Positions 22,488 to 55,010 of a stretch of DNA of 55,811 bases are shown piece by piece. A program made the translations under genes and the position numbers. This DNA is from Prorocentrum cordatum (taxonomy: Eukaryota): the NCBI GenBank assembly GCA_963575745.1, contig CAUYUJ010000130.1:62001-117811 (forward strand), given 5' to 3'. Below the pieces are notes generated by a model that saw only the letters and a list, made by a program, of their open reading frames with translations, was not told the origin of the DNA and did not search any database. Each line of letters begins with the position of its first letter. Within the stretch, counting starts at the first letter, position 1.

Positions 22488-22534
<47 letters not shown>

Positions 22535-22943: not shown

Positions 22944-22979
<36 letters not shown>

Positions 22980-23332: not shown

Positions 23333-23397
<65 letters not shown>

Positions 23398-23432
23398 GTC
23401 ATCACCGTCATTATCGTTATTATTATCATCAC

Positions 23433-23523
<91 letters not shown>

Positions 23524-29641: not shown

Positions 29642-29677
<36 letters not shown>

Positions 29678-30336: not shown

Positions 30337-30496
30337 TTAAGTCGGGCCTGTCTCCTTACAGGGGGATTTTCGACGAAAGATGAAACATACCCACAAATAA
30401 TCAAAAAGTAGTCAAAGAATAGTCTGGGGATTATTTTGTTGACTATTTTATATGTTTCGTCGAAAATCCCCCTGTAGGGGGACACGCCCGACATAT
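30337..30496. mobile_element. MITE family A copy; another partial copy at ~30647-30750
   Basis: TTAAGTCGGGCCTGTCTCCTTACAGGGGGATTTT ... AAAATCCCCCTGTAGGGGGACACGCCCGAC. Confidence 0.75.
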
Positions 30497-32830: not shown

Positions 32831-33632
32831 GGAGCCTGGAGGGAGTTTTTTTTCCAGCACCGTTGATGAGTCTTGGATTTACGCCTGCCCTGCTCCTCGT
32901 CGTCGTCGTCCTCCTCCTCCTCCTCCTCTTGCCTCCCTCCTCCTCCTCCTCCTCCTTTTCCGCCTCCTCCTCCTCCTCCTCGTCCTCCTCCTCCTCCTCC
33001 TCCTCGATGCTCCTCTCTCTTCTCCTCCTCGTCCTCTTCCTTGATGCTCCTCCTCGTCCTCCTCTTCCTCCGCCTCGATGCGCCTCTCTCTTCTCCTCCT
33101 CCTCCTCCTCCTCCTCCTCCTCCTCCTCCTCCTCCTCCTTCTCATCCTCCTCTGGGACCTTCCGCTCCGGTTCGCAGCACCTCTCGGCCGAGGACAGGCA
33201 GAGCGGCGAACAGGCGATCCCGCTCCACCAGAGGGCCTCGCCGCGCGTTGGCCGCTGCCCCCTCCCCCTCTTTATCCTCCTTATCCTCCCTCCTCCTTCA
33301 TCCTCCTCCTCCTCCTCCTCCTCCCCCTCCCCCTCCTCCTCCTCCTCCGCCTCCTCCGCCTCCTCCTCCTCCTCCTCCTCTTCCCCTACTCCTCCTCCCC
33401 TCCTCCTCCTACTCCGGCCTCCCTCCTCTCCTGCTCCTGCTCCTCCTCCTCTTCGTCCTCCTCCTCCTCCCTCCCTCCTCCTCCTCCTCCTCCTCCTCCT
33501 CCTCCTCCTCCTCCTCCTCCTCCTCGCTCCTCCTCCTCCTCCTCCTCATCCCTCCTCCTCCTCCTCCTCCTCCCCCTGCCTCGGGTTGGAAGTGCGGGCC
33601 GACGCCGACGCCGACGACGACGACGACGCCGT

Positions 33633-33664
<32 letters not shown>

Positions 33665-34130
33665 ACGACGCCGTCGCTGACGCCGACGCCGACGCCGACG
33701 CCAACGACGACGACGCCGACGCCGACGCCGATGCCGCCGCCGCCGCCGACGACGACCAAGACGACCGGCCAATACGACGACGATGACACGGCGGCGGCGG
33801 CCGCATTTCTGGCTCACGGGCAATCTGGGGGCCGTCGCCTCCATGGGCGTCTTCCCCGCCTTCCAGCATGCCTCCGCCGTCCCACACCTCCGTCGTCGTC
33901 CTAGTCATCATCCCTCCTTCCTCGTCGCTGTTCCCCTTTCCCCCTGCTCTTCTTCATCCAGAGTGGAGGAGGAAGAGAGGGAGGAGGAGGAGGAGGAGAA
34001 GGAGGAGGAGGAGGAGGACGAGGAGGAAGAGGATGAGAAGGAGGATAATCGAGGACCGTCGAGAAAATTCGGGGAGGATCAAGGAGGAGAAGCGGGAAAG
34101 GAAGAGGTGGATAATGATGATGATGCTGAT

Positions 34131-34955: not shown

Positions 34956-36077
34956 CAACGTTGCGCAGGAGGCGTGCACACTCGCCGAGCAAAGGGGCCT
35001 CCCTGTGAGGGCCTCGGACCCAGCGCCCCGACCCAGCCCCCAACGCGCACCTCCCGAGGCGCGCAGAGTGGCGTCGCGCAGGATGCGGCAGGGTCGGCGC
35101 CCCCCTGGGCCGGTGCAAGTGGCTGTCCGGCAGGCAGAAGCAGGGGTGGGGAGGGAAACGTCAGGTCGACACTCCAGCTTGTCAGGTCGCGCAATCAAGC
35201 GCTGCGATCGCATCGAGATATGTTCAGAGGAAACAGAACATCCTCAAAAAAAATCCACCGCTTCCCCCTCGAGGGGGTGCCGATGGTGAAACGTGGCAGC
35301 GGTCAAAACGGCCTGGCAAACCCAGGCCGCCTCCGTGCCGCTCCCTCCCCCCCAGTGGACAAGTGCACCAGTTCCCGACCGGCGGAGCCCCAAGGCCCCG
35401 AGTTCCAGGGCTGGCTGCGAGACACCAGCACCGCCAGAGGTCGGCAGCGGCAGTGCACGGAACACCCGTCTGGCGGAACCCCACGGCCCGAGTTCCAGGG
35501 CTGGCTGCGAAGCACCAGCACCGCTGAACAGGACGAAACTGAAAAGGGAAGGAGGCACGAGAAAAGGGCACGGGGCGTGCCGCAAAAGACAGGACAAGTG
35601 CAGCACCGCATGACCCATCAGCTGAGCAACGTGTCCCTTCGGCCCCAGGCCACACACTGGACTATTGCATTTCCGATGGGCGGAGCCCGATCCCGTGCGT
35701 GGGCGGACCTACGCACCTGGGTCAGCCTCCTCTGAAGCTTGCTGCACGGCAGCCGCAGCGGCTAAAAAGGGCAGCACCGAGCACAGAGCCATGCTGCAAA
35801 AGAGTCGGAGCCCGATCCCGTGTGTGAGCGAACCTACACACCTGGTTCAGCTTCCGTTGCTAAAGCGGCAGCTGCACGCGCGCGCACCGAGCGTAGGCCA
35901 TGCCCGCGGTGAGAGACCGCCGAATGCAGCGACTGGCGACCTGACCGTCAGCAACGCTACTGTCCTCCAGGCACCTGGCCCCGCAAGGGACTTGTTGCAT
36001 AGCCGACGGTATCGGGCCCGATCCCGTGCGTGAGCGCGCCTGCGCACATGGTTCAGGCCCGAATTGGGCAAGAGAGT

Positions 36078-39000
36078 CTAGCCGTCCACTCGCCTGCGAA
36101 GGCGTCGCAGGGGCTCAGGGTCGCCGATGCCGCCCTGCCCTGCTGGCTGCAGCCCTCGCTTGAGGCAGCCGAGCACCGCCTTCTGCCTGTCGTTCTTGGG
36201 CGCCCTCGGACACACCTTCGCCGAGCCCGACATCCTGACGCTCTGCGTCCAGTCGCCGCACTTGGCGCAGAAGAGGTGATTGCCTGCACGCCATAGCTCG
36301 TGGGTGACGTGCGGATCGAGCCCCTGCCACGGTGGAAGCGCGGGTGGGGGCGGTGGCAGCGGCTGCGCCACAGGTGCTGCCACCCGTTGCTCGTGAGCTG
36401 CAGCGGCCGCGCCGCCGCTGCCAGACGAAGCCCCATCACCTCCACTGTCACGCTGTTCCCCGTCATATGCTGCTGCTGCTCTCAGCGAGCCGCTGGCCTG
36501 GCTGGAGAGCAAAGCCGCGCTCGCTGCGAGGGGGGCCGCGGCCGCGGCGACCGCGCCCGAGGCCCCCCCTGAACCCGAAAGCCACGAGCCCGAGATCGCC
36601 TCGCCCCGAACAGCGCATTCCTGGCAGGCCCAGAGCGCGTCGCTGCCGACCTCGAGCCATGTCCCGTGTCTGCCGCATGTCCTCCGCGCGCAGTCGCGAA
36701 AGCAGCAGTGGCTCCTCCAGCGCAGCTGGCATCCATGCCAGTCGCGCCGCGCCGCCGCCATGCCTGGCCCTTCGTAGCCCCCCACGGCGGTCAGCTCCGC
36801 GTCGCCCTCCTGCATGGCGGCGCCCAACCAGCGGATTACCTTCCTGACGAGGCGGTCCTGGCGCAGGCTGCGCGCGCGAACCACGTCGTCCGTGGGATGC
36901 ATCTCAGCGCCCTGAATGGCGCGAGCGTCCGCACTGTGGTTGCCCCTGCGCTGCCAGGCGGTGATGCGCTCTGCCCGCGCGTCCGCCGGCGTCGCGTGGG
37001 CCTTCGCCTCGTGGATCGCGACGTTGTCGAGGCCGACGTCCTCGAACGCTCGCCGCAAGCGAACCCATAGTTCTCGATGGGGCCGCTGCCACTGGAGGCA
37101 CCATGCCTTGCCCGCTGCGAAGCCATCCACTAGCAGTTGGCAGTCGGTGAAGATCCTGACTGGCGGGGGGCAGTCCTGTAGCCCCTCGATCACAGCTGCC
37201 AGCTCCGCGGCCCCCGACTCTTGTGGGCGTGGCCAAGGGGGCGGGCCGAAGATGCTGAGGGCTTCCGCGTCGCTGCTCATGACTGCGGCAGCCCAGCCAC
37301 CCCTTGCGGAGACCAGGCCGGGGTCCAGGGCGCTGCCGTCGGGGGGGGTGTCCCCGACCAGTGGGTGGCGCACGAGATCGGCGCGCCCTTCCTTGCGCGC
37401 CGGGCGCTCCTCCGTGGGCAGAGGGATTTAACGCCTATGCTCGGGCGCCAGGGCCCTCGACCAAACCGGGTCCTCCGTCGCGCCGGCGCTGGCCATGTCG
37501 GCGAGGGTCCCGAAGTGAATGTCGTCGGGCGCCCTCCTGTCGTCTGCGTCGTCATTGGCCACCCACTCTGCGCGGCCGAGCGTGGTGGCAGGGCGCTGCC
37601 GCGCCAGGTGCCGCGCCGTGCCGCGTGCAATGCACCCGCGATGGCACTGGGGCGACGACGCCAGCGGCCGCTCCTCTGCGAAGCGGCGCGCCACTGGCCA
37701 TAGACAGCCGACCAGCGCGTTCTTGGCCGAGCTCATTTGCCTGGCCGTTTGCGGACTCATCCGCCTGCGGTGCAGGGTGCGCCTGATGCTGGACAGGGGC
37801 CCCCTGCGGCCAGGTGCTCCAAGCCAGGATGCCTGGCTGCATCCCTCCACAGCAGCCGCCCATGGCTGGCGCCGATGTGCTTGGAGAGGGTCGGTGCGCC
37901 TAAGGCCTTCGCGTCGACGGGCTGCTTCAGGTCGTTGAGGAAGAAGCCCGGTCGCAGAGCATGCCGCCCCGGGCGGTGGCATGCCAGCACGCATGCCGAT
38001 GCAGGGCTCCTGCCAGAGAGTGCCTCAGGCCCTTCAGCATCCTTCCCCGTCAATGCCCCTGCGAACGCGCTCCCGCGTGCACGCGAGTCCGCGCGGTCCG
38101 AGTTGAACTGTGCCGCTTTGGCCCACGCAACGATGGGCAGCGTCGCGTGGTCGACGAGCGGGTCGCTGGCCAGGCGCTTGCTTAGGAGGAAGCTGAGGCT
38201 GAGGCTCTTGCCAGGCCCTCTGCCGTGGTGAACGACATTGACCTGCCTCCGCCACTTGGTGAGCTGCGGCGACGGCCAGCCCACCGCGCTCAGGCCGTGT
38301 CTGGTGGCAGGCCTGAGCCCCGTGTTGGCCGCGCGCGCTGCCGCTGGTGTCTCCTGGGGGCGGATGGCGTGCAGCCTCTGCAGCTGCGCTGCCGCCTTGG
38401 TGTGGCGCGTCTCGAGCACCGCGAAGGCCTGGCCGTCCAGGCAGTAGTCCACTCCCAGGTGCTTGACCGAGTCGGCGATGGGAAAGGCGGTGCCCCCTAT
38501 CTGCTTGGCCACCAGTGAAACCAGCTAAGGCGAGCTCGCAAGCAACCCGCTCTTCGACTCCGACACCTTGCAGCCCAGCGCCACGAGCTGCGCCGCCACG
38601 GCCTTGGTCGCCTGGGCGACGCACGCCGCGACCTGCGCCATGGGGCCGTGGCACCTAACGCAGCAGTCGTCGAACATAATGGCTAGGGTGACCCGAGGCT
38701 CCAGCGCCCGCCATAGGCGCGCGGTCTCATCGGCCAGCACCAGCAGGCCGCACTTGAGGAGCCGCCCTGCGTGCGAGCAACCAGCGAGGAGGCCCGCGTC
38801 CAGCAGGTATGGGTCGGAGGCGCTGCCGTCTAGCATAAAGCGCCGCGCTCCCGCATACAATGTCAGCGCCATGCCCAGCAGCCCCCTCGGGTAGCCCGCC
38901 ATGATGCTGCGGTCCTGGATGATCGCCAGGTCTACCAGCTCGTAGGCGTTCCACAGGTCGATGGGTGATGCTGCAGCTCCCTCGCTTCGTGCTTGCGATG

Positions 39001-42000
39001 CCTCGGCCCGGAGCGCTTGACGCCAGACGGCCTCTTCGACCGCGCGCCCGCGGCCGCCCCAGAATGCGCCTGCTACGCCTGGGTCGATCTGGGAGTCCCA
39101 GTGCCGCGCGTCTGGCTGACGGACGCGACTCCAAAGGCGCGGCAGCCCGCCCAGCAGGCCTATGGGCCGAAAGCCCCATTGAGGCTTGGGCAGCACCACC
39201 ACGAGAGAGCCGGTGATGACGTCGGGCCAGCCGCCCGGCCCCCCGCACCGCATCCCGAAATCGATGGTGACCCCCGGGAGGGCGTCGCTGATGTCCGCTG
39301 CCTTTCTGGGGTTTAGGCGATCGCTGCCAACGCCAGTGCTGCGCCTGAACGCATTGGCGGCCTGACGCACCCGATCGGCCGAGTGCCTGGGCAGAGCCTC
39401 CGCCTCGGTGGGCGGTCGCCGCGGGTGAAAGCGATCGCTGCCCTGTCGGACCCGCCAGACCTCGGCGGTCCACTGTTGCGCCGCGACCTTCGCTCGGTCG
39501 GGGCCGTGCGCTGGGGCGCCGCGCAGCTCGTCGTCGGGTGCCCAGCCGCGCGGTCCACGCCTGCAGGCGTGGAGGCCCCCTGCGCCTGTTGCCCTGGATG
39601 TGCGGATCCACTCCTTGAGCCCCTGGCAGCGAATGGCGGCAAAAGCGGCGCCCTCCGCCTCAGCCGCGGCCCTGGCCTCGGCAGCCCATTCGGCCAGGGG
39701 CAGCAGGTCGGGGCAATCGGCCGCCAGGGCTACGCGTGCGGCCCGCTGTGCCCCCGGCGGGAGGCCCTCCATGGTCGGGGGCTTCGAGGCTGCCGCAACT
39801 GCGCGCGCACCTCTGCCGCCCGCGCTGCCGCCGCCGTTGCTGCCGTCGCAGCCGTCGTCGCTGGAATCCGACGGAAGGTCCCCGTGATACCGCATGAAAT
39901 CCTTGACGGACTGAATGTGGCTGTAGTGCTCGTCGTCCGCTACTGCCCACGCGTCAGGGCGGTTGGACTCTAGGGCGATCGCGCTGCGGTGGTGCTCGTC
40001 CCTCACAGGCTGCGCGACTGACCAGCTCTGCTCGCGCAGCTCCACGGCCCTGCTCCAGCGTGCGGCCGCTCGGTCCGTGAACGGCTGAGCCGTGCAGGTG
40101 CCTATCTCGCGCTCGCTGCCAGCGCTGCCGCTGCCTGTGGTTGCCGCTGTCGAAGCCGATGCTGCATGCCCCGCGCTGGGGGCTGCTGGGTGCCCTCCAC
40201 CTGCTGCCGCCAGTGCGGCGAAGGATCCTGGAGGGTGCTGGATCGGGATCGCGCTGGCCCCCTCCGCGGCAGCTGCCCCCAGCGCGGCCACTGATCCTCC
40301 GCCGCTGGGGCCCCCCGCGGTGTTCGCGTCGGCGGCGCCTTCGCCCTCGCACTGGCAGAGGCGTGCAAGTTTGTGGTGCGTGCACAGCTCCATCCACTCG
40401 GCCCTGTCGCGCTCCGGGCCGGGAGCCTGCAAGTGCGGGGGCCAGCCTCGCGCGATGCGCTGGAGGGTCCTCCGAACTCCTTGCGCGCCGAGCTCGATGG
40501 CGCTCCACTCGCCGAGAGCCGCCACTCCCTCTAGAGCGACGCAGGGGATAGGGGGCTGTGGCGTTGCCCGAGGGGCGCCATTCAACTTGGGCTGTGACGT
40601 CGCCCGCAGGCATCCACCCCCGGTGCGGTTCCCAATTCGTCGGGGGCCTCGTCGAAACATCGAAGGCGAAGGTGGCGCCGAGGGGCCTGCTGTAGTCGCC
40701 GCGCTCATCTAATCACCGCTTCGATTCCACGTAGCTGTCGACAGTTAGGTGGCACTCATCCTCACCATCCTCTGGATGTAGTTGGCCGAGCTGTCGGAGA
40801 ATACGAGCCAGCGCACGCCTGCCAGGGCCCCCGCGCCGCCACGCAGAAGAGCAGATCTCTCTCGCGGTGCACATGCGGTTGTCGAACTCCTACGCCAGGC
40901 CCGTGGCGACGTGCGTCGGCAAGCCCAGCATGCGGAAGACGTAGGGCGCGCACTTCTCCATGCGCTCGGCCTCGTCGTTGTAGTGGTTGGGGTTGCTAGG
41001 GTTTGAAACCCAGCTGCGCGCTCGGCGCCCCGCCGCGCGCTTGTAGCGCCTGGTGGCCCTGGCCTGCATGCGCTCGGCCTTGCGGTGTTCCGGGTCCAGC
41101 TCAAGGCGCCCTTCAACCCCGTCATCGGCCTCAGCGCCGCCTGTGAAAAGCGTCACCTGTGTGAAGTAGTCCGATAGAAGTCGGCGTCGTCAGGGTCGAT
41201 CTGGTGCGCCCAGGCGAGCTCCTCCTCTACGCCCTCGCAGAGCCCCTGGTGGGCTTCCCCCGTGCCCTCCAAAGTGCCGCTCATGTCAATCTGCTCCGAA
41301 CAGCGTTGTGCTCCCAGTGCATCCCCAGCATGGGCCCGAAAGGGCGGGCCTCCCTGGCTCCTGGTCCGCCGTACTTTGGATGATTTTCCGACCTAAAATT
41401 GTGTCGGAAATCGACGCCAAAGGAGCCTCAAGGGCGGAAATCGACGCTCAAAGGGGCCTCAAAAGTAGGGCGGAAATTTCCGCCCTATTTTCGAAATCGC
41501 CCAAAGTAGGGCGGATCAGGAGTCAGGGCTTGGGGAACGCCGTCGGCCCCTTGACCCTGAGCGACTGGCCCATGTCACCGTAGCAGGTGAGGCTGAGCTG
41601 CACTGCCATATGTGGGCGGCAAGGGTTGGCGTACTCCCGGGCGGTCATGTCCAGGCGCTTGCAGGCGAGGATTCGGTCGAACCTATCGGAGCTGACAATG
41701 AACCAGTCTAGCTCCGAGGGCTCCTTGGTCGGGGAGTGCTGGCAGGCCCCCACGCCCGTGTCAACGACGTGACCGCCGACTTTGCAGAGCCAATGCCCCG
41801 CGCGTTGAAGGAAACGCTCGGGCTCCACGTCCCAGTCGCCTGCGATGACCCACGGCTTCCCTGTGCGCCTGAGGAGGGGGCCGACCTGCTGCAGTACGGA
41901 CTGGCTGGTCTCGCCGACGTCGTCGTTGTCCAGGTAAACGGAGCCCAGCAAGAACCCGCCATATACCGCTCCATTGACATAGGCTACCGTGGCCCTTCCG

Positions 42001-42311
42001 TCAGAGACATGGCAGCTGGCCTTGCAGCCCTGATCGCGTGGGCCGCACATGCCGCGGGTGGAGCGCACTGCGACTCCAGTGCCACCGCTCACCGCGCGCT
42101 GCTGCGATGCCACCGCGGAACTCACGCCTGGGGTGAGCACCGCGCTCCAGCCGACCTGCCTGCTCACAACTCGGTAGCCGTTGAGGTGATGTTCCTGGAA
42201 GCAGATCGCGTCTCCCACGTGCGCGTCGACGACCACCTGCTGCTGAGGATCCAGCTGCTCGCCAAGGGTGGTCGCGAAGGGGCCCCAGCCGCTGCCGTTG
42301 AGGCTGACCAC
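36078..42311 (-). pseudogene. LINE-B ORF2 (APE, RT, RNase H, C-terminal Cys/His motif), disrupted
   Basis: APE: SLNGSGW, FQEHH, GSVYL, IAGDW, ELDWF, RPH. RT: GFRPIGL, IDLWNAYE, LLAGCSHA, MFDD, HLGVD. RNase H: DGSA, AELAA, IFTDC, KAH, GNHSADARA. C-terminal HELW..LFCAKCG. Confidence 0.9.
41352..41528. mobile_element. MITE family B inserted in LINE-B ORF2, 2-bp TSD (CT)
   Basis: Near-identical to 18341-18517. Removing the element and one CT restores the minus-strand frame AFPK-ARPFGPM. Confidence 0.9.
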
Positions 42312-42383
42312 CGTGAATATGGGCTTGCTACCCGCGCTTCCCCCTCCACCCGGGCCCCGCCCAGCGGAGGTTCTGGGGGAGCT

Positions 42384-43316
42384 TCAGCTCACGAGGCCCG
42401 CGCCTCTGGGCGGCCTGGGCTGCGGGGTCCCCTCGTCGAGCCCCGTCGTCGCCGCTGCCAGCGCTTGCTGCCGCGCTGCCCTCTTCTGTGGGGGCCTCGA
42501 CCTCTTCCTCCAGATGTCCAAGATGTTGCTGAAGTCGGCCTCCTCGAGCTCCTCGTCGCCGCTGTCGCGTGCTGCTGCTGCGCCCGTTGCTGCGACGCTG
42601 TGAGCCTGCCGACGAAGCTGGGAGACTTGCTTCTCCCAGTGCTGGGCGTAACCTGTGTCGAGCATGCCAGAGGCCTGGTCCAAAGCTTCCAAGAAAGCTG
42701 TAGCGCGTTCGCCCTCGCTGAGTGGGGCTGCTGGGGACCGAGGCGCTGCTGCTGTGGCGCCCGCCACCACCACTCCTTCTCCGAGTTGCTCTTCGCGCTC
42801 CTGTCTGTGCCTGGCCAAGAGGTCATCGATGAGCGCCTGGAGCTCCTTCTCCGCTGCCTTGCTCTGCTCGTGCTTGCCCTCGAACTCGAGCTTCTGCGCC
42901 TCGAGGCCCGTGATCTCCCTCGCGGTGTCCGCGATCTTCCTGTCGAGCGCCTCCGAGGTGCTCTGCTGGTTCGGCTGCTTGCGCTCGAGCTCGCTGAGCT
43001 GCACGGACGTGGGCCTCTCCACGGCGAGCTTGTGCTCCAGCTGCTGCGCCTCTTGCCGCTTGCGCGCCAGTATTTCAGCTGCGCCCTCCACTCCTTCGAG
43101 CTTCTTGATGTCGCTCCGCAACTTCCCGAGCCGCCGTGCCCTCTCGTCCTTCGGTGCGGCGTGGGTTGCTGCTGTTCGTGGGACTTCACCTCCGCGAATC
43201 AACCTGACGGATGTGCCCAGGTAGTCCCAGATCTTGCCGAAACAGCATTCCTGAGACGGCCACACCGCGAATAAACGTGACCGCTGCGTCCCGACACTCC
43301 GGAGTCGAGCCAGCAC
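42384..43316 (-). pseudogene. LINE-B ORF1: decayed N-terminal Cys motif and long coiled coil
   Basis: Lies directly upstream of the APE domain; heptad-rich E/K/Q/L sequence. Confidence 0.7.
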
Positions 43317-43855: not shown

Positions 43856-44423
43856 GATGATGATGATGTGATGAATGAATGATGATTATGAGAGAGGAGG
43901 AGGAGGAGGAGGGGAGAGGAGGAAGAGGATTATGATGAGGAGGAGGATGAAGGAGGAGGAGGAGCGGGCGGGATGAGAGGAAGAGGAGGGAGAAAAGAAA
44001 GAGGAGGAGGACAGGATGAGGATGAGGCTAAGGAGGAGGAGGAGGAGGAGGAGGAGAAGGAGGAGGTTGAGGAGGCGGAGGATGAGGAGGAGGAGTAGGG
44101 TGGGATGAGGTGGATGCAGTTGCTGAGCGCTTCAATCCGCCGAGCAGATGGGGAGGGGGGGTGCTGGCTCCGTCCCTTCCTTCAGGATGGAGAAGATCAT
44201 GAGGACGATGCTGATAGGGGATCATCCGTACAATTGTTATGTTCGAGTTATTACCACCATCATCTTTTCGGGTGGGGGCGTTGGTCAGGAGATGTGCCCA
44301 GGAGGCTTCAGACCTTGGGAGTGCCTTGTCTGATGAGGGCGGCGGTGATATCCATGGCCAGTCCACGATTGGAGTTCCACGGTCTTCTGGAGTCTGGATT
44401 CCTTATCCAGTGGTTCCTGATTC

Positions 44424-44436
44424 AATGCCCTCACCG
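44424..44436 (+). repeat. Target-site motif AATGCCCTCACCG, copy 1 (others at 45589-45601 and 52868-52880; 12-bp core at 53033-53044)
   Basis: Exact direct repeats at each unit junction. Confidence 0.9.
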
Positions 44437-44437
44437 T

Positions 44438-44459
44438 TCCGTAGCCATTTTGGCTCAAG
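44438..44459 (+). other. Complete dinoflagellate spliced-leader sequence (DinoSL), genomic retrocopy
   Basis: TCCGTAGCCATTTTGGCTCAAG, 22/22 to DCCGTAGCCATTTTGGCTCAAG. Followed by a possible partial relic CCGGTCTCAAG. Confidence 0.97.
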
Positions 44460-44530
44460 CCGGTCTCAAGCCCCTGGTTGCCATCTGCCTCCGCTCATGG
44501 CCGGTCCGGGCGCAGCAGCTGCTTGAGGAG

Positions 44531-45520
44531 ATGGTGACGGGAGGGGACCCCCGCAGGTCCCCACGCTCACGCGCGGAGCGCAGCGAGGCTGCGCGGCGGG
44601 CGCGCTCGGCGGCGGACGCCGCCGTGCGGCATGCCCGAGCGCGGGTGGAGGAGCTCGTGGAGCGGCTGGCCCTCGCCGAGAGGACGCTGGAGGCCTTCAC
44701 GGGCGATGCTGAGCTGGCCGACAGGCTCGCCGCGGTGGTGCCTGCACTGGGCGCGCTGGTCAACGGCGAGCAGCCCTCCTGGCTGGCGCGGCTCAGGAGG
44801 AACGTCGCGCTGCACGCCAAGGCGGGCGCCATCAAGGGGCGCATCGCAGGGGCGGCGGCGAACGAGCTCAGGAAGGCGCAGAAGCAGGAGCGCCTCGGGA
44901 AGCCCCCCTTCCTCAACCCCTCGGCGACGGAGGAGGTGCACGAGGACAAGGCGGGGGCCGCGCAGAAGCAGGGGCATGCGGCTGAGCAGGTGCAGAGGAT
45001 GCTGCACGAGAGAGAGCTGCCCCAGGCAGCGCCCGAGGACGTCCTGGGCGCGAACTGGCTGGCGCCAGGCTGCTGGCAGCCAGGCGACCCCGAGCTGGAG
45101 GCGCGGGCCTTCGGAGAGGGATTCGCATGTGGCTGGCGGCTGGCGGCGCGGCGCGCGGAGGCCTCGGAGGGTCCCCCTGCGGCTGAGGCCACGCAGGTGG
45201 TGACCATCTGGACTTGCTGTCTGGAGGCGGGGACGCGGCCCGAGATGCACGGCATCGGGATCGAGCTGCGGCGCCTCCCCAAGGACAACCAGGCCCCGCC
45301 CGAGCCCACGGCGGCGAGCGACCACTCGATAGAGTACGGCGTCCGCCTGGGCCCCACGCAGCGGCAGCAGGGCATCGACGGCGATGGCGAAATGCTGCCG
45401 CTAGCGGCCGAAGGCGGGAGCGGCGGGCCGCAGCTCGAGGGCCCCCAGGGCGCTGCGGCCGCCCGCGCCCGCGACCTCGCCGAGCTCTACGCCGCCTTCG
45501 TGGAGGAGATCGGGCGCTGA
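44531..45520 (+). CDS. Hypothetical 329-aa protein with a helical/coiled-coil N-terminal half (RLRRNVALH motif); cargo of the non-autonomous unit
   Basis: Intact ORF starting 72 nt after the SL, strong GC3 bias, stop ~65 nt before poly(A). No RT or endonuclease motifs. Confidence 0.7.
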   Translation: MVTGGDPRRSPRSRAERSEAARRARSAADAAVRHARARVEELVERLALAERTLEAFTGDAELADRLAAVVPALGALVNGEQPSWLARLRRNVALHAKAGAIKGRIAGAAANELRKAQKQERLGKPPFLNPSATEEVHEDKAGAAQKQGHAAEQVQRMLHERELPQAAPEDVLGANWLAPGCWQPGDPELEARAFGEGFACGWRLAARRAEASEGPPAAEATQVVTIWTCCLEAGTRPEMHGIGIELRRLPKDNQAPPEPTAASDHSIEYGVRLGPTQRQQGIDGDGEMLPLAAEGGSGGPQLEGPQGAAAARARDLAELYAAFVEEIGR

Positions 45521-45602
45521 GCGGTGGCGGGGCCCTAGAATGCCTGCATGAAACCGCCGTGCTCGCGCGGCGCCTACACAGATAAAAAAATGCCCTCACC
45601 GT

Positions 45603-45624
45603 TCCGTAGCCATTTTGGCTCAAG
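45603..45624 (+). other. Complete DinoSL at the 5' end of LINE-C
   Basis: TCCGTAGCCATTTTGGCTCAAG, exact match. Confidence 0.97.
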
Positions 45625-45845
45625 GCAATGAACCGTCCCGACGACCGCGAGTCTTTCGGGGCGAATTCTGAGCGCGAGGGAGGTTCCGCTTTGAGGCCAC
45701 CTTCCTTTCCAACTTGCGAGTGCTGCCACCGCAGCACCCTCCAGGACCTGCGGGTCACGCCTTCTTCCGAGTCGGTGGGCCCGCCCCCGTCGACTCCTGC
45801 CTGCCGCGCGCCCGCGGCTGAGCAGCGCGCCCGCCCGCTCCAGCG

Positions 45846-47033
45846 ATGGGGCCCAAGGCCGAGCCTGGCTTCGTCGTGTGCACGGGCTGCCGCTGCCGCT
45901 GGAACTTCCGCAAGAACGCGGAGTGCTGGCAGTGTGGGATTGGGCTGGAGCTGGCGCCCTCGAAGCCTTCGCCCCGCGTCGGGGTCTGGGCGGATGGCGG
46001 CGGCGGCGGCCCCCCGCCCGCGCGTCGTGGAGGCGGCGGCGGAGGCTCACCGAGGGATGGCGCCAAAGGCGGCAAGGGCGGCAAAGGCCGAGGTGCAGCC
46101 TCCCGTGGCGGCGGAGGCGGTGCAGCCTCCCGTGGCGTCGGCGTCGGAGGCGCGGGCGGCCGTGGTGGAGGCGCCTTCCCGAAGGCCCCTTGGTCGGCCC
46201 TGCCCGAGAGCGAGCTCGACGCGCTCCTCGCCTGCGGGGACCCCGCCATCGCGGCCAGGCTGCAGGAGGCGGTCCGCGACGCGCGGTGCTTCGTCGCGCC
46301 CGCGGCCGCCCCAGCGCCAAAGCCACTCGAGCAGCGGCTGCAGTCTGCCACGGCGAAGCGGATCAACCTCCAGCGCCAGCTCGACGAGGCGGCAGATGCG
46401 CTCGTGGCGGCGGAGGACCACCTCGCCCAGTGCCGCGGCTGGCGCGACGAGGCTGCGGTCAACCTCACGGAGGCCAAGGAGGAGGAGAACGCCCTCCTGC
46501 GCCAGCGGGCCCAGGCGGCTGGCGTTGTGGGCGCGCAGCCCGACGGAGCGAAGCAGCTCACCTTCAACTTCGACGCGGAGTCGTTCGACAACTTCGCGGA
46601 GCTGGAGGAGGAGGCGCAGGCCACCCTCAGGCGCCTCTGCGAGGAAGGGCTCCAGATCATGCAGGGCGCGCAGGCTACGTTCGAGCGCAACTGCCAGGAG
46701 CACCAGCAGCGCATCAAGCGCCAGATCGAGGAGGAGGTGGCCAAGAAGCGCAAGCGCTCCGAGGAGGGGCCTGCAGCAGCCGAGGCCGCTGGCACCCCCG
46801 AGCAGGGTGCTGCCGCCCCGCCTCAACCTTCAGGACAGGCGGCCGCCCCTGCTGCCGCCGCCGCCCCAGCCGCAGGCGCTGCGCCAGGAGCTGGACCCCC
46901 CCCAGCGGCCGCTGTGGAGAGCCGAGCGGCAGATGAGGCGGCCCGCCAGCGCGCAGCCGACCAGAAGGCCGCTGCGGCGGCCCCTCCACCTGCTGCCGGC
47001 GCTGCTGCTGGCAGTGGCCAGACCTGCGGGTAG
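45846..47033 (+). CDS. LINE-C ORF1, 395 aa: C4 zinc finger, RGG/Gly-rich tract, coiled coil, putative NLS
   Basis: CTGCRCRWNFRKNAECWQC (RanBP2-like spacing), RGGGG repeats, heptad region and KKRKR. Confidence 0.85.
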   Translation: MGPKAEPGFVVCTGCRCRWNFRKNAECWQCGIGLELAPSKPSPRVGVWADGGGGGPPPARRGGGGGGSPRDGAKGGKGGKGRGAASRGGGGGAASRGVGVGGAGGRGGGAFPKAPWSALPESELDALLACGDPAIAARLQEAVRDARCFVAPAAAPAPKPLEQRLQSATAKRINLQRQLDEAADALVAAEDHLAQCRGWRDEAAVNLTEAKEEENALLRQRAQAAGVVGAQPDGAKQLTFNFDAESFDNFAELEEEAQATLRRLCEEGLQIMQGAQATFERNCQEHQQRIKRQIEEEVAKKRKRSEEGPAAAEAAGTPEQGAAAPPQPSGQAAAPAAAAAPAAGAAPGAGPPPAAAVESRAADEAARQRAADQKAAAAAPPPAAGAAAGSGQTCG

Positions 47034-50000
47034 CGCCCTGCTGCCGGGAGGCGGCCCCGACGGCGCGGCGCCGCCCGCCCCAGTCGGGGCTGTGGAGGCA
47101 GAGGCGGCGAAGCCCAGCCGCCCCGAGGCGGCGGCGCCATCGAGAGGCGGCCTGCACGCCTACCTGGCGGCCAATGAGCAGGCCGATGCCTGGGAAGGGC
47201 TTCCCTTCAGAGTGCCGCTACTGCGCCAGGACCGGCGCTTTGATGACGCGCGCCACGACACCAAGTTCGAGGCACTCAGCAGCAGTCCAGAGCCAAGCGC
47301 TGCGGCGGACTTGGCTGGGCCCGACCGAAGGACTGGCAGTCCTCAGCCCAGCCAGGGGCCCATAAGGAATAGTGGGTACCCATTTCAAGTTGACCAGGCT
47401 ACGGGCGAGGGCGTGAGGCCCCCCGAGGTTCGGAGACCCAAGGCGGCGAGCAGCCGCCCGCCTGGCGGCCGCTCGGCCGCCGCGGCAGTCGTGAAGCCTG
47501 CGGCACAGCCTCAGCCTGGTCGACCGCAGGTCAAGCCCCTCCAGCTGGCCAAGCTGATCAGGCCAGTGGGAGCGAAGCGAGCCAGCTTCGTCACACTGAA
47601 CGGCTCGACCTGGACAGAGACGCAGGTGGAGCTGGAGCGGATCCAGGACGAAGGAGGAGGCGACGACGTCATCCTGGTGCAGGAGACACGCTTCACCTCC
47701 AGCCAGAAGGCGACTGACGCCTGCAGCTGGGCCAGGCGCAACTGTTTCAGCGCTGCCTTCGGCAGCGTCCACAGCACGGGGCAGGCGGCCCAGGCGGTCT
47801 CGGCGGGCGTCGGGGTGCTGACGTCAAAGTCTAGGGGCGTGGCGGCTATCGACCACGACTGGCACCGGCACAGTGCCCGCATCCTGGCCCGACGGGTGGC
47901 CTTCGGCGATCTCGCGGTTACGGTGGTCAGCGCCTACCTCGAGCACACGACCAGGATGGCAGGCTACAACCTGGAGCTGCTGTCGGACCTCCAGGAGTTC
48001 CTGTTCAGCCTCCACGAGCCGTTCATAGTGGGGGCCGACACTGGAATATGGACCCCAGCGTGCTCGCCGCCTCTTGGTGGCCACGGGCTGTGGGCGGGGT
48101 GGTAGTCGCGCCCACGACTTTCACCTGCGGCGACCAGATCAACGACTTCTTCGTGATCTCCACGGCGCTCGCCGGCCTCAGCCCGAAGGTGGAGGTCATC
48201 AAGCCCACAACACTGAACCCGCACGCACCAGTGCGGCTCACGTTCAGCGAGCTGGGCAGCAACGCCATGGTCTGGGTCCTCAAGACCCCCAGGGTCTTCG
48301 AGGTGGGCTCGGAGGTCTCGGCCGAGCAGCGTGAGATATCCCTGCAGGCGGCGACCCAGATCAGCTGGACAGCCCCCATCACCGACAGAGACGGCACGCC
48401 CGATGCGGCGATCAAGGAGTTCTTCGAGGCCGCGGAGCTCCACCTGATCGACCAGTTCGGCATCTACGTGGGAGAGAGGTACCAGGGCAGGGCCAAAGGT
48501 CCCCGCACCGTCAAGAAGAAGCTGGCGGACCTGCAGCGCACGGAGGCTGTCAGAAAGCTCAGCCCCATCACCAAGTGCTGGCTCTGCCTCGGGAGGATCG
48601 CCAGGCAGCTCAGGGCGGCTGCTGCGGTCTGCTCACCCCCTGTGGGGCACGTCGGCTACATCAAGCACCTGGTGCAGGTGGCAAAGAGCTTGGGGCCCAA
48701 GTTCGAGCAGGCGGGTTGCACCATGTTCGAAGGCTCGAAGCTTGACTCGCTGATAGACGTGATCCAGGAGCCCACCGAGCAAGGGCAGGCCTTCCTGCAG
48801 ATGATCGAGAGCACGACGGAGAGGCACCGCAAAGAAGACGCCAAGGCGGCCAGGCTGCGCTGGAAGGACTTCGTGGACGAGGCCTTGGCGAAGGGGGCAA
48901 AGGGCGCCCACGCAGTCATAAAGGACCGTGACCAGGTGCTGGACTCGGTGACCGCGCACTGCCCCGACAGCCTGCCGCTCCCAGTTGTTGGCCAGCAAGC
49001 CCTGGACCAGATCCTCATTGAGTGGAAGGCCCTTTGGAAAGGTGCCGACGGGGAGTGCAGGTCCAGACCAGCCGACTGGATCTGCTCCATGGAGCTGCCC
49101 CCTATCACGGCGGACGACATCCTCGAGGCGGCGAAATCGTTCCCGAAGCAGACCGCTCTGGGCTGGGATGCGTTCCACCCGCGGCTGGTCCTCTCCCTGG
49201 GCAGGCCCTTCGCCGAGAGGATGGCAGAGGTGCTCACGGCTTGGGAGCAGCAGCCACAGCCCACAGCCTTCTTCACCACGGTGATCGTCTTCCTGGGGAA
49301 GCCCGACGGAGGCCGCCGCCCGATCGGCATCATGAGCATGTGGGCGCGTATCTGGAGCAGGGTGCGCCGCCGCTACTGCGCCAAGTGGGAGGCGGACCAC
49401 CCGCTCCCCGAGGTCTGGGGCAAGGACGCGAACACCTGCTGTGACAGGGCGGCCTACCTCCACAACCTGGGGCTCGCGCTCGCCCGCCAGCTTGGCTTCG
49501 AGGCAGCCTCCGTCTACTTCGACATCAGCAAGTTCTACGAGCGGATCGACCATGACCTTCTGCGCCAGGCCGCGGAGGGCAACGGCTTCAGCGTCGGTCT
49601 GCTCAGGGCCCTCTGCGTACTCTACGCTGGGCCGCGCCGCGCCTCGGCGGACGCCGCCATCAGCGAGCCCATTGAGGTCAGCGGCACCATCATCGCGGGC
49701 TGCTCCTGCGCGACGACGCTGGCCAGGCTCATGCTGCACGGCCTCCTGCTCCAGGCCAGGGCGCTGCTGCCAGTCGGCAGGGTCGTCAACGTCATCGACG
49801 ACATAGCAGGCCACGGCATCGGGTCGGCAGCGACGCTCAGCCGAACGATCGCGAGCTTCGTCAGCGGCGTGGTCGAGATGCTGGCGGACAGGCGGCTGCC
49901 CATCAACTGGAAGAAGACGAAGGTCCTGGCCTCCTCGGCGGGCCTCCAGCGCCGCCTGCAGCGGGAACCCGACTGGCGGCTCGCGGCCGAGGCCTTTGTC

Positions 50001-52616
50001 TCGGGCCACCGTGACCTCGGCGTCGACGCCACGGCCGGCAGCCACAGGCGAGTCGCGACTCAGGTCGGTAGAGAGCTCGCGGCGCTGCGGCAGGCCAGCA
50101 GGCTCCACAAGATCTTCGGGCCTGGCCTTCGGCAGGCAAGGGTCTTGCGCGCGGGCCCCTCAGCCAAAGCCCTATGGGGTTCGGCCTGCAACGGCATCCC
50201 GCCTGGCCGCACGAGAGCCCTGAGGCTGGCAGCGGCCAAGGCGACGGGCAAACTGGCTCCTGGGGCTGCGCTGGGCTTCCTGCTGCAGTGCTCGCCGCGA
50301 GGCTGGCGCCGGGACCCGCTAGTGGTGGCCACGGGCTTGGCCGTCCTAGCGTACACCAATGTCCGCTGGGCAGGCCAGGCCTCCGCGGCGGCGATCCAGG
50401 CCTGCATAGCGGAGAGCGCCAGGATCGTGAGGCTCCAGCGCCCTTGGGCTGCCGTCAGGGACCCGATCTCGGCCTTGGTGCTCACGCTGCAGGTCATCGG
50501 CTGGGGCCTCAGCGACGACGGCGACTCCCTGCAGGACGAGTTCGGCTGCTGCTACTCCGTCCTTCGGTACTCCCCCGCCTTCCTTGCGGAGAAGGCCAAG
50601 GAGGCGGCCAGGAAGGCGGCAGCCTTCCAGGAGTACGACGCCAGGCCTTATACCCTGTGGCCGTGGCAGCTGCCGCCAAACTGGCGGGCCATCAACCAGC
50701 TCCTCGGCGCCGCGCCCACGGAGACGTGGTCCAGCCACCACTGTGGCTGCCTGCGCAGGCTGGCGTCTCTGTCACTATGGCCGCAGGCCAGGCTGGCCAA
50801 GCGTGGCACCGACATCGACGACCGCTGCCTGCTCTGCGGCGAGGAGAGCGGGACTCTGGCCCACCGCCACCACAGATGCCCTGCCTGGGAGGGCTGGCGG
50901 CGAGATCGCAGGCCCGCCGACTTGAAGCGAGCTGCCGAGCTGGTGAGCACAATGGGCCACCGCTACGAGGAGCTCTTCTGCCAGGGCCTCTTCGTTGACG
51001 CCCAGTACCTGGTGCAGAGGCCGCGCTGGGGCCCTCGCTGGGAGCGCCGCTCGCGTGGCTGGGACGAGGGCGCGCTCGTGGTGCCCGCGGGCTCCCTCGT
51101 CTTCACGGACGGCTCCTGCGTCAACAACGGCTTCCCGATGGTCAGGAGCGCGGGCTGGGCAGTGGTGGTTCTCGCGCCCGACGGCGAGTGGTTGGCGCAG
51201 GCGTGGGGGGCAGTGCCGCCTGCCCTTTTGCCCAGCCAGACGGCGAGGGCAGGCGAGGACTACGCGGCGGTGGTCGCCCTCACCGACATCGTCGGCCACT
51301 ACCACCTCATGATCGATTGCCTCGGCACGGTCGGGGCTTGCAAGGACGTGAAGAGGGCGGCGGCCCCGACGGCCCAGTTTGCCCACCTCTGGGCGAGGGC
51401 CGGCGACGCCGCCGAGGGGGTGCACGTGAAGCACATCCCCGCCCACCGTTCTCGGGCGGCAGTCGAGCAGGGCGTACTCTCGGAGGTGGAGCTCTACGGC
51501 AACCGCCTCGCGGACCAGCTCGCGAAGGCGGGCGCGGCGCTGCGCGCCATCGCCGACGAGGAGGCCCTCCTGCTCCAGGGCTGCCTGGCCCGCGCCCGTG
51601 ACGCGGCGCGGTACGCCGCCGAGTTCGAGGTCCAGGCTACGGAGTCGGGCTTGCGCGACTCCTGGCCCATCAGTTCGCTGGAGCTCGTCGACCTCACCCC
51701 CTACATGGCGGCGGAGCTCGACGGCGAGACCGACTTCCTGCACGCCGCCGCGGCGGAGCCCGCCCCTGGGACAGGTGGATTCAGCCCACCGACGTCGCAG
51801 TCCCAGGGGCGCGGCGAGCTCGAGGTGATGCACGACGCGGAGGTGCGCGGGGCTGCCGCTTCAGCGACTGGCTTCTCGAAGGAGCCCGACGCCGAGCCTG
51901 GCGATGACGTCGGCGTAGCGCAGCCCTCGGCGGCTGACGGCGGCCCCCGCCTCGCCACGGCGGCGGCCCTGGCAGCGGCGGCGGCAGCGGGCGCCTCCAG
52001 CTCGCGGCCTTCGCCCGCGAGGCGCCGCCCCGCCTCGGCCGAGTCGCCCGCGGAGGTGCTGCGCCGTGTAGCCCAGCGCAGGGCGCAGGAGCATCCGAGG
52101 CGCCGCGAGGCCTCGGCGCCCGCGCCCAGCCCGCGCCTGGCGGCGGCGGAGGCGACGAGCAGCGGCCCAGCCCCTGCGGAGGCGGCAGATGCGACCCGTC
52201 CAGCGGGATGGAGGGTCAACGGCCACCTCCTCATGGAGTCGCGCGTCGAGGGCGACGTTTCCGAGCCCTTCCTGGTCTGCGCGGCCTGCTGGATGTACTG
52301 CCGCCTCCCCAGGTACGCGCACCGCGGCCTGGGCAAGCCGTGCGGGGCCAGCGCGGCGGCGGGGCAGCCCAAAAGCAAGAAGGGATCCAGAGCCCAGGCG
52401 CGGTCGGACTTCGCACGTGGGATCCTGCCAGCGTCGAAGGAGCCGATCGCGCCGCTGGCCTCGCCAACGGCAAGCACGCGCCTGCGCTGGGCGGCGGCGC
52501 TCCAGGCCTGGCAGGGCCACGGCTCGGAGGTGCAGGCGACCGAGGCGGCGCCCGCGCCAGCGCTGCGGCAGCCTGCTGCAGCCCCGCCCCACGCCGCCTG
52601 CGGCTGGCGCTGGTAG
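46933..52616 (+). pseudogene. LINE-C ORF2 polyprotein (APE, RT, RNase H, Cys/His motifs) with one 2-bp frameshift at 48040-48041
   Basis: APE: FVTLNG, ILVQET, SAGVG, VSAYL, GAD[ac]WN, INDFF, NPH. RT: GRRPIG, FDISKFYE, IIAGCSCA, VIDD, DLGVD. Zinc: CLLC..HRHHRC. RNase H: FTDGS, GED, IDC, IPAH, GNRLADQLAK. The start codon is uncertain. Confidence 0.92.
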
Positions 52617-53095
52617 CCTGATGGCTGCGCCGCCGAGCGCCACGGCGCCGCGGCGCCTGGCAGCGGCGGCCCCGCGGGCGGAGGCAGCCGAGCCGCGGCG
52701 GATCCGCCCAGGGCTCGAGGGCGCCCTCCGAGCCCACGGCTTCGCGGACGCTGCGGCGGCCCGCGAACGCGGGCGAGCCGCGAGGGCGGCGGCCGTCCCG
52801 CCTGCTTGAATTTGTTTGCAAGAAACCGTGGACCTTTGTCCGCGCCCACAGAGTTAAAAAATAAAAAAATGCCCTCACCGCTGTCGCTCTGGATCAGGCC
52901 GTGCTGAGGTCAAGCACACGGGAATCTGCTTCTTCTCTTTCTTTATCATTAAGATGTTGATTCTTCCTCTTTTCGTTCGTTGTCGTCGTGTGTGCGCAAT
53001 GAAGTCTGCTTTCGCAGACCAGCGGCGATAACATGCCCTCACCGCATTGGGGCGGAGGAAAGGGAGGAGGAGGCCGGAGGAGAGGAGGAGGAGGA

Positions 53096-55010
53096 GGAGT
53101 GGAGTGGAGTGGAGTGGAGTGGACTCCGCTGCGCAGCAGGTTCGGGTCTTAGGAAGGCCTGGACAAACGAGCATTCGAACGCCGAGCTTGTTCAGCTCGG
53201 CTCAGAACTTTGGGATGCAACCCCCTAGCAATTCTGTCAAGGTACTCTTGCCCCGTGGCGGACTTCCTCTTACTACAAGGGCCTTTAAGAGATCGCAGAA
53301 CCTTATCCGCGGTGCCCCCACACTCGGTGCAGAACCAAACCTGAAGGGTCGGGTGAACATTCAGGGTATGCGTAGTGTGGGCCCAACCCCCCGCGATGTG
53401 GACTCGCGACCCCTTTAACGGCGAAAACAGGACCCCATCGACATTGTACAGCCTAGGACATTCAGATTCGACGAATTCCTGGGTGGTGGCGAGGGTCGCA
53501 GAACCAAAACAAGAGAGGCAACGTCGGCCGCAATCGGCCAGACGGTGCCTGGAAACGAGGGCAGCAACAGTGGCAGCAGCGGGATGCGGAGGAGGAGGAG
53601 GGGCGGGGGGAGGCGGGGCCTCAGAGGGGCTCCCAGGGCCTCGGGCGGCGTCCCTTTCCATTCTCTCAGTCTCCTGGCTGGCCGCAATGCTGTCCAGCGT
53701 GGCTCGGAGGAGCCTCATGCGGACGAGGTACGCCCTCCGCTCGGCCAGCAGGATGGGTTGGCGGACCTCGGCGGGCAGCCTGGCTCTGGCCGCTGCACAG
53801 CCCGCGAACTCGTCGGCGAGCAGGTTGCCTATGACGAGGTACCTGTTCACCTTCTGGGCAGCGACATCCTGGGCCGTGCTGTGGGACGGCGTCCAGAGCA
53901 CCGTCACCTCGGCGTGGCGGCGTGAGCTCATCAGGTCCCCGATGAGCTTCCATAGGTCGGCGTCCTCACCTGCTGGGTTCGTGTAGGCTTGGGAGTACCA
54001 GCCCGCCGCCACATATTCACAGTCCGTCACGTAGGTGAGAAACCTAGTGGTGCACCAGAGGGCGAGGTACAGGGAGTAGAGCTCTCCCCTCGCCACGACT
54101 TGGCGTGGGCCACCCAGCTGGCCGAATACTGCACCATGTAGGTTGATCTCGGGCAGTAGGCTGGCTACGCACACTATGGCGACTCCAATCCTCATGAAAT
54201 CGCTGATGCTCGCATCTGGCCCTCCACTGGCGTCCCCGAAGATCTCGACTGGAGACTCAGCACTCCCCGCCCCGAAGATCCCTTCGGACAACTCGTTGAT
54301 GCCCGTGAACTCAAGGACCGTGTCCTTCGGTGGGGGCGGGGTCTGGGTCCACTGGGTCGGTAGCAGTCCACGTAGCCAGAAGCACTCGGTGGCGTCCGTC
54401 TGAGCCATCGCAGCTGGAACCAACGACTCTGAGCGTTCATATGGCGCGGCCTGCACGTTCTTGCTACACTGCCAGAATCTGTGTTTGGCCGTCTCTGGTG
54501 CCTCTCGGCAGCGGTCACACAAGTTGCTGCCCTTATAGCCCTTCAATTCATCATATCGCCTCTGTCGCGTCCAGTATCCACCTGTGGCAATATTGATCAA
54601 CAGCTCAGTGAGACGCACACCGTGTGGGAGTTGCCCGACTTGTTTGATCAGCACCCGAAATGACCGATTGTCAACTCCCTGCTCGACTCCACCTCCGCAA
54701 TAGTGCTTGGCAGCCGCGGTCCATACCACCTGGGCCGCCGACTGACGTACATCCTTCAACAGCTCACGGTGTGTGTGTCGAGAAACTTATTGCCCGTGTA
54801 TATGGTGTCTGGAAATTGCCATTCCTCCGACCCCGTGGGTGTAGTGTACGACCACGTGTCCACATCCTCAGGGTTCCACTTGATGCGGAGGAGGGTGAGG
54901 ATTACTGCGGATACTGGGCCACGAACTGCACGCACCTGATGTTGGGGATCCAACTGGGATAGGTGGTCTCGGACATGATGCCATACTTGTCGTACTCGCT
55001 GGCGCAAACA
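53096..55010 (-). mobile_element. 5'-truncated LINE (LINE-D) with RNase H and an (ACTCC)n tail, inserted in a (TCC)n tract
   Basis: (GGAGT)5 at 53096-53120 and GGA repeats on both flanks. VRGPVSAVILTL is homologous to LINE-C VRDPISALVLTL. Confidence 0.88.
53149..55010 (-). pseudogene. LINE-D ORF2 C-terminal part (CCHC-like finger, RNase H, two Cys motifs), frameshift near 54760
   Basis: CDRC..ETAKHRFWQC, IFGDASG, RGEL, VTDC, DLW, WTPSH, GNLLADEFA and WFCTECG. Confidence 0.88.

Follow-up and report, generated by a model that had tools for sequence, protein, structure and literature searches.

A putative spliced-leader retrocopy with a LINE-family 3' tail beside a LINE in Prorocentrum cordatum DNA

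Organisation of the locus

We analysed a 55,811-nucleotide (nt) stretch of Prorocentrum cordatum DNA (contig CAUYUJ010000130.1, positions 62,001 to 117,811; hereafter the window), in which two units lie one behind the other on the + strand. The first, the short unit (44438-45590, ~1.15 kb), runs from a spliced leader (SL) to an A7 run (45584-45590). The second (45603-52861), which it is reasonable to classify as a long interspersed nuclear element (LINE), runs from another spliced leader to an A6 run (52856-52861). Both units end in a 3' tail with a short hairpin ahead of the A-run, and contigs from public sequencing runs provide good evidence that the tail of the short unit is a genuine 3' tail variant of the LINE family, of a sister-subfamily type.

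Two full spliced-leader relics form the 5' ends of the units: a 22-nt relic at 44438-44459 (21/21 match at 44439-44459) for the short unit, and one at 45603-45624 (exact core match at 45604-45624) for the LINE. The 21-nt core of the dinoflagellate spliced leader (DinoSL; query as quoted in the available part of PMC7245778) has only these two mismatch-free matches in the window, where none is expected by chance. Thus, we treat the window as dinoflagellate DNA. Upstream of the short unit lies a high-copy flank repeat (44300-44437, +), which ends in ...AATGCCCTCACCGT and is delimited by run depth and by divergence of contigs behind 44437.

The short unit and its open reading frame

The short unit encodes an open reading frame (ORF) of 329 amino acids plus stop (44531-45520, +), identified by its frame, its codon periodicity and 114 related clusters. 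GC contents at the first, second and third codon positions are 0.79/0.55/0.90, versus 0.68/0.55/0.89 in ORF2 of the LINE, with the same codon periodicity. The related clusters come from an exhaustive profile search (23 at E <= 1e-10) and share an N-terminal domain of ~120 amino acids. In the AlphaFold model a helical N-terminal domain is confidently predicted (predicted local distance difference test, pLDDT, >90 for amino acids 11-120; mean 63.9). Seven of the 114 clusters have a translated spliced leader at their start, so members of the family circulate as SL-capped RNAs or retrocopies. The named relatives are P. cordatum proteins, one of which (P0117) is identical to the window ORF at 276/282 positions (98%).

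No Pfam family was identified for the short ORF or for the 32 of 114 relatives searched (the longer ones were chosen). A profile from 36 of the 114 relatives found no PDB match by sequence, and a Foldseek comparison of the model with the PDB gave no match at E <= 0.001. A word-index protein search with the short ORF gave no match, and one with a 151-amino-acid part of the P. cordatum protein P0004 found P0003 only. The short ORF was also considered as a protein like ORF1 of the LINE and rejected (BLASTP E 22; profile comparison probability 0.3%); a tblastn match between the two at 7.6e-5 was obtained without composition correction from alanine-rich sequence and is not trusted.

Contigs of four public sequencing runs (including X1, X2 and X11, the last only guessed to be RNA) were placed on 44300-53200 at 80% likeness; all run-contig results below are among the rows listed of 874 variant rows, 628 loose ends and 1802 pieces. 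At the three listed amino-acid-changing positions (44751, 44984 and 45392), X1, X2 and X11 contigs have P0117-type residues. The body of the short unit is represented by one contig per run (X1, X2, X11), versus 2-9 at LINE positions, among the contigs listed, contig counts being a poor measure of copy number. One X11 contig begins within the leader at 44448, as expected of a trans-spliced transcript. With that caveat on contig counts, the short unit is low-copy, expressed, protein-coding and unlike a short interspersed nuclear element (SINE). Rfam gave no tRNA, 5S or 7SL match in the short unit.

The gene copy is directly preceded by a DNA-encoded DinoSL and ends in an A-run, as in retrogenes with spliced-leader relics. 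The LINE-family tail begins 24 nt past the ORF stop, and AATGCCCTCACCG flanks the short unit on both sides. On the best reading of this organisation, an SL-capped mRNA of a Prorocentrum-type gene family would have been retrocopied to give the short unit, with a LINE tail fused to it. The original prediction of a LINE/SINE-type partner does not fit what is found here, namely a 1.15-kb SL-capped mRNA retrocopy with a 329-amino-acid ORF that has codon periodicity and is represented by one contig per run.

The two 3' tails

The tail of the short unit (45545-45583, +) comprises the flank TGCATGAAAC (45545-45554), a hairpin at 45555-45572 (stem CGCCGTG at 45555-45561, loop CTCG, stem CGCGGCG at 45566-45572) and the spacer CCTACACAGAT. 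The tail of the LINE (52817-52855, +) has the same parts in the same order: the flank TGCAAGAAAC (52817-52826), a hairpin at 52827-52844 (stem CGTGGAC at 52827-52833, loop CTTT, stem GTCCGCG at 52838-52844) and the spacer CCCACAGAGTT. Folding and pair counts agree with the original prediction of two hairpins between conserved flanks, each of 7 bp with one G-U pair and a 4-nt loop; the distance to the A-run is 11 nt in both. The flanks are identical at 9/10 positions on the 5' side and 8/11 on the 3' side. Identity is 9/18 in the stem-loop versus 17/21 in the flanks, which is the pattern expected of a structure under constraint.

Between the two tail sequences, on which all of these counts rest, three of the seven stem pairs are invariant (pairs 1, 2 and 5), three are changed on both sides and one on a single side, and pairing is lost at none. 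The original prediction of five differing inner pairs with pairing kept is right about the pairing, but the number of inner pairs that differ is four. All 14 stem cells are paired, and a slide control gave 100% pairing at register 0 only. In simulations, seven random stem substitutions leave all pairs intact in 0.18% of trials, changes confined to inner positions do so in 0.6%, and random inner sequence yields five pairs in 0.9%. A hairpin of 7 bp with a 4-nt loop is present at 0.19% of window positions. The 12-nt flank motif TGCAWGAAACCG, with at most one mismatch, occurs at the two tail sites only in 55.8 kb (0.21 expected; 2 of 100 shuffles reach two). The pair changes are suggestive of covariation across the two tails, and it is plausible that the hairpin serves as a recognition signal of the LINE. 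LINE homology may reach back into the short ORF over its final ~100 nt, where a score of 19, reached by 5 of 500 shuffles, is suggestive only.

Run contigs join LINE sequence to the short-type tail

Independent evidence for a link between the two tails comes from contigs that pass from LINE position 52795 directly to 45545, where the short-unit tail begins. This joint was found in one contig each of X1 (side of 42 nt) and X2 (side of 43 nt); the latter contig has 40 differences from the LINE over 52501-52795 and is ~86% identical to its 3' region. LINE-like contigs align to the short-type tail up to 45587, inside the A-run. Because LINE 3' sequence with a short-type tail is present in two runs, chance is not the main explanation and the tails are homologous variants of the 3' end of one family. 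The original prediction is borne out in this respect: the short-unit tail is LINE-related and not a look-alike. The contigs with the short-type tail could represent a LINE subfamily or a LINE-derived element.

One X11 contig of 1450 nt includes the LINE-type tail and has its end at 52853, just before the A-run. There is no excess of tail sequence; no LINE bin has a lower depth than the one with the LINE tail (15.4 in X1, 18.8 in X2), depth being a weak measure. At LINE positions 45625-45664, the first ~40 nt behind the leader, depth is ~1000 in X1 and ~390 in X2, several-fold that of the LINE body; thus, something else in those genomes shares the leader-proximal sequence.

A LINE transcribed by RNA polymerase II (Pol II) must bring its own 3'-end signal. 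The tail, hairpin included, may thus be the cleavage and polyadenylation signal of the element itself and not a site of reverse transcriptase (RT) recognition, and the retrocopy would have kept or gained it. The fixed distance of 11 nt to the A-run in both units and the X11 contig that ends just ahead of the A-run are consistent with such a role. However, the motif is absent elsewhere in the window and hence is no general mRNA signal, and the presence of a LINE-subfamily tail on a cellular retrocopy is left unexplained unless the two were joined by reverse transcription or recombination. We consider this explanation unlikely.

Insertion hallmarks and the flanking motif

The motif TGCCCTCACCG occurs in four copies, at every unit boundary. 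Copy 1 (44426-44436, +) is directly 5' of the short unit. Copy 2 (45591-45601) is contained in the left copy of a 20-nt direct repeat, ATAAAAAAATGCCCTCACCG (45582-45601, +), and copy 3 (52870-52880) in the right copy of that repeat (52861-52880, +). Copy 4 is at 53034-53044 (+), and the ~50 nt that precede it are homologous to the flank repeat. The sequences ahead of the two units are identical over 36/36 nt, leader included (44424-44459 and 45589-45624; AATGCCCTCACCGTT followed by the leader). The 20-nt repeat is identical at 20/20 positions, starts inside the A-run of the short unit and is a candidate target-site duplication of the LINE. The motif TGCCCTCACCG itself may represent a target-site duplication, a terminus common to the units or a site at which insertion is preferred.

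On the simplest reading, two successive insertions may account for much of this arrangement. The short unit would have been inserted first, with a 13-nt duplication, and the LINE would then have entered the downstream copy of that duplication; its own duplication, of 20 nt, begins in the A-run of the short unit. With 62% GC, the genome would offer few A-rich targets besides such A-runs.

Some features of the flanks are left over. Two insertions do not explain the fourth TGCCCTCACCG copy, 165 nt downstream, which is preceded by ~50 nt of homologous sequence; the alignment (44387-44437 with 52999-53044) places a diverged ~50-nt end of the flank repeat 3' of the LINE. Also not explained by two insertions are the at least 25 X1 contigs that diverge just behind 44437, right after ...CACCGT, into unlike sequence (agreement 0.4), and the presence of a hairpin with 6 bp or more in the 45 nt ahead of each of the four TGCCCTCACCG copies, versus 24% of random stretches. 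Ordinary LINE insertion does not explain why the 5' junction of both units is at the same base after CACCG. The bin with the flank repeat (44300-44596) has a depth of 596 in X1 and 196 in X2. The flank repeat (44300-44437) has internal repeats, and both copies of its end hold a 6-bp hairpin in slightly different register.

For these junction and flank features we keep a model with a longer 3' module, in which the hairpin and an A-rich spacer of ~15-25 nt are followed by TGCCCTCACCG, either as the true terminus or as a specific landing site where a high-copy repeat ends, and units pile up head to tail. It would account for the motif at all four boundaries, the shared 5' junction, the high-copy flank with contigs that diverge right behind the motif, the hairpins upstream of every motif copy and the occurrence of named relatives as tandem units. 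Yet the X11 contig with the LINE tail ends at the start of the A-run and not at the motif, and LINE-like contigs align to the short-type tail no further than 45587, short of the motif. In addition, the four sites represent only two independent families, and a 20/20 repeat that includes the A-run of the neighbour fits a plain target-site duplication. The model is therefore an improbable one in our judgement, on a level with a 3'-end signal.

A gene subfamily fused to a segment of LINE ORF2

A second connection between the gene family and the LINE is found in P0004 and P0117. In these proteins the end of the ORF (...ARARDLAEL..AFVEE) continues in frame into ~80 residues like the C-terminal extension of LINE ORF2. 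The segment is identical to the translation of 51621-51854 (+) at 44/79 positions (E 2e-17); we refer to relatives with this ORF2 C-terminal segment behind a short-type ORF as form B. Beyond the ~80 amino acids the P. cordatum proteins and the LINE are unrelated. The unit in the window (form A) departs from the fused form at the same point, after FVEE, and reaches its stop three codons on. Units occur in tandem in these relatives: P0004 has two, and in P0117 a window-type unit is followed by one of the fused type. An X11 contig with a depth of 541 joins 45508 to 51706 with 64 nt between. Fusion to LINE-like coding sequence was found in only 1 of the 114 representative relatives. The ~80-amino-acid stretch of the ORF2 C-terminus is also present in cellular-looking P. 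cordatum proteins (P0004, P0117 and P0118).

These fusions bear on whether the short unit is a member of a dedicated non-autonomous family that is propagating and has retained the LINE 3' hairpin in order to be copied by the LINE, in the manner of a LINE/SINE pair. Consistent with this are the LINE-derived tail, the second architecture of the ORF subfamily with its LINE ORF2-like sequence and tandem units in P0004 and P0117, the depth of the X11 junction contig and the seven clusters with a translated spliced leader. Against it stand the single contig per run for the body of the short unit (X1, X2 and X11, among the contigs listed), the low depth of the tail bin (a weak measure), the restriction of LINE-like coding sequence to one representative relative, and the nature of the unit, which at 1.15 kb is of Pol II and SL type, protein-coding and not SINE-like. 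We regard a dedicated family as rather unlikely, and no result points to a dedicated high-copy parasite. The original prediction preferred a dedicated parasite or partner to a chance retrogene; with the data at hand the former is not separable from a one-off template-switch chimera.

The LINE

The LINE encodes a candidate ORF1 (45822-47033, +), recognised by codon periodicity and without a Pfam family above cut-off, the N-terminal part of a putative APE-type endonuclease (47500-48102, +) in a frame that differs from that of the rest of ORF2, and the ORF2 frame (47835-52616, +) with RNase H, putative reverse transcriptase and zf-RVT domains and a long C-terminal extension. RNase_H is above its Pfam cut-off in the ORF2 frame (26.8 bits, cut-off 25.8). 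RVT_1 (E 0.0028, 17.8 bits) is below its 29.6-bit cut-off and the zf-RVT match is weak; the Exo_endo_phos match (E 6.6e-4, 19.9 bits; profile positions 31-150 of 225) is below its 24.5-bit cut-off. The nearest ESM Atlas clusters to ORF2 carry RVT_1, RNase_H and Exo_endo_phos_2 (score 0.97), and ORF2 has no match in the PDB by sequence. Self-comparison of the window identified no long terminal repeats (LTRs), and the element has a 3' A-run and a 20/20 flanking direct repeat, as a non-LTR element should. Thus, a LINE with APE-type endonuclease, RT and RNase H is a reasonable reading of these domain matches.

The element looks young, as the flanking 20-nt repeat is perfect, the leader is full and many run contigs are 95-99%+ alike (in X1, 120 at 99%+ and 178 at 95-99% of the 828 contigs placed on 44300-53200). 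LINEs of Symbiodiniaceae and Polarella are described as old remnants in the available part of PMC8045281, and LINEs are not discussed in the available part of the P. cordatum genome paper (PMC10666404). The leader at the 5' end suggests that these LINEs acquire their 5' ends by trans-splicing.

Other features of the window

A second, distantly related LINE was identified on the minus strand (~35000-42400). Its Exo_endo_phos domain (41526-42383) is above cut-off at 26.2 bits, and its RT (38768-39616) is 27% identical to that of the first LINE (E 3e-17). Neither a spliced-leader relic nor a tail of the type described above was found in it. Very long GAG/GAT/CTC-type triplet low-complexity tracts occur on both strands (e.g., 4600-7700, 18600-23900 and 28400-34100). 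GAG-type low-complexity repeats dominated the output of the repeat finder for the whole window and of one blastn run. Rfam gave no matches at gathering scores in the whole window, and around both tails at E up to 1 only far-sub-threshold matches.

Comparison with known systems

LINE/SINE pairs of the stringent type share a 3' tail with a stem-loop, as described for eel UnaL2/UnaSINE1 and zebrafish ZfL2 in the available parts of PMC1636434 and PMC4176376. As in those pairs, the non-autonomous unit bears the 3'-terminal tens of nt of a LINE family, including a short near-terminal hairpin, and the tail differs between LINE subfamilies. Unlike in those pairs, the partner here is an SL-capped, protein-coding 1.15-kb retrocopy with a low contig count and not a short, high-copy unit derived from RNA polymerase III (Pol III) transcripts, and the ends are A-runs and not short terminal repeats. 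Homology at the 3' end is thus present, whereas the unit is not short, non-coding or high-copy and lacks a Pol III-type head.

Chimeric retrocopies that arise by template switching include the U6/L1 chimeras of mammals and MINE in Magnaporthe. A general review is PMC3747384 (in its available part). The arrangement described here is alike in that a LINE 3' end and the copy of another cellular RNA at its 5' side are found with one A-run within one pair of flanking repeats. It differs in its 5' partner, a trans-spliced mRNA of which the copy extends as far as the spliced leader. The gene also has a sister form joined to a different LINE segment, a hint that the association has recurred or been inherited.

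Dinoflagellate retrogenes with spliced-leader relics, as reported in the available parts of PMC6050394, PMC12014239 and PMC7245778, likewise have a full DinoSL relic 5' of an intron-free copy. Unlike those reported, the retrocopy in the window has a LINE tail at its end and lies directly beside an SL-capped LINE. Processed pseudogenes of the L1 type are formed by relaxed, poly(A)-based recognition (PMC3472496, available part). The likeness to L1 lies in a LINE with a putative APE endonuclease and an A-tail and in copies with A-runs and flanking duplications, but a purely poly(A)-based mechanism would not put a LINE-specific 38-nt tail on a retrocopy.

A proposed mechanism

We lean, at somewhat better than even confidence, towards the short unit being a LINE-made, LINE-tailed chimeric retrocopy, both units most likely having been inserted by LINE target-primed reverse transcription. 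The RNA of this LINE family would have a 3' module composed of flank, hairpin, 11-nt spacer and A-tail, at which reverse transcription begins; the module is probably read partly as structure at that start, a function we infer for the hairpin. The short unit would have taken the module of a sister subfamily, most likely when the RT switched template from the LINE RNA tail to the mRNA. A template switch predicts what is seen, one repeat pair that encloses a leader, an mRNA body, a LINE tail and an A-run. Alternatively, an RNA that already had the tail may have been copied through. No contig among those listed extends over the 3' end of the parent-type transcript.

Several observations weigh against a LINE-tailed chimera. 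The run contigs, including the counts on which low copy number depends, are limited as stated above. The observed covariation of the two sequences was matched by 61 of 500 shuffles in the column-shuffle control. Isolated tails do fold into the hairpin, with z-scores (-0.52 for the short unit, -1.90 for the LINE) that are ordinary for GC-rich DNA, and in a 69-nt context the minimum-energy fold of the short tail is without the hairpin. The plain similarity score of the tails (12) is equalled or exceeded elsewhere in the window. A hairpin of at least 7 bp is present within 45 nt upstream of 7 of the 28 A-runs of at least 6 in the window; three of the seven are the runs studied here, and as 4 of the other 25 also have one, such hairpins are not rare.

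Further copies of the tails were not recovered by pattern searches: viral contigs gave three matches (all chance matches in phage), metagenome contigs none, and genome contigs 13 bacterial chance matches, none of them related by blastn or tblastn. Of the 114 pattern stretches obtained with the ORF2 C-terminus in metagenome contigs, none was confirmed, and a word-index protein search for translated tails, made with an antisense ORF that spans the LINE tail, had no matches. Also to be counted here are the split of the endonuclease over two frames at 47835-48105 (a frameshift in this LINE copy or an assembly error) and the common base of the two 5' junctions.

Taken to their limit, the unremarkable folding and the similarity score that is not unique in the window would make the tails two GC-rich 3' ends with coincident short flanks and hairpin, all the more as a 7-bp hairpin occurs in 12% of random 45-nt stretches and the feature was chosen post hoc. 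We consider coincidence highly improbable, given the short-type tail on LINE 3' sequence in contigs of two separate runs, the identical offset, stem length and loop length of the two tails, and the restriction of the 12-nt flank motif to the two tail sites.

Implications for dinoflagellate retroposition

Retrocopies with spliced-leader relics make up about a fifth or more of the genes of dinoflagellates. As to the machinery behind them, LTR elements are favoured in the available part of PMC6050394, the question is left open in those of PMC12014239 and PMC7245778, and in that of PMC10235124 LINEs are argued for from neighbourhood only. In the literature searched (subscription journals not covered), we found no dinoflagellate report of a LINE 3' tail on retrogenes or of a LINE 3' stem-loop.

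A broader picture, possible but doubtful, is that a young SL-capped LINE family in a Prorocentrum-type dinoflagellate may start reverse transcription at a structured tail, make LINE-tailed copies of trans-spliced mRNAs through template switching or tail capture and stack its insertions at a preferred landing motif. If true, a direct molecular signature of the machinery that has retroposed dinoflagellate genes on a massive scale would be available for the first time. With a LINE-tailed retrocopy beside an SL-capped, apparently young LINE and insertion hallmarks common to both, the locus makes the question of the retroposition machinery directly testable.

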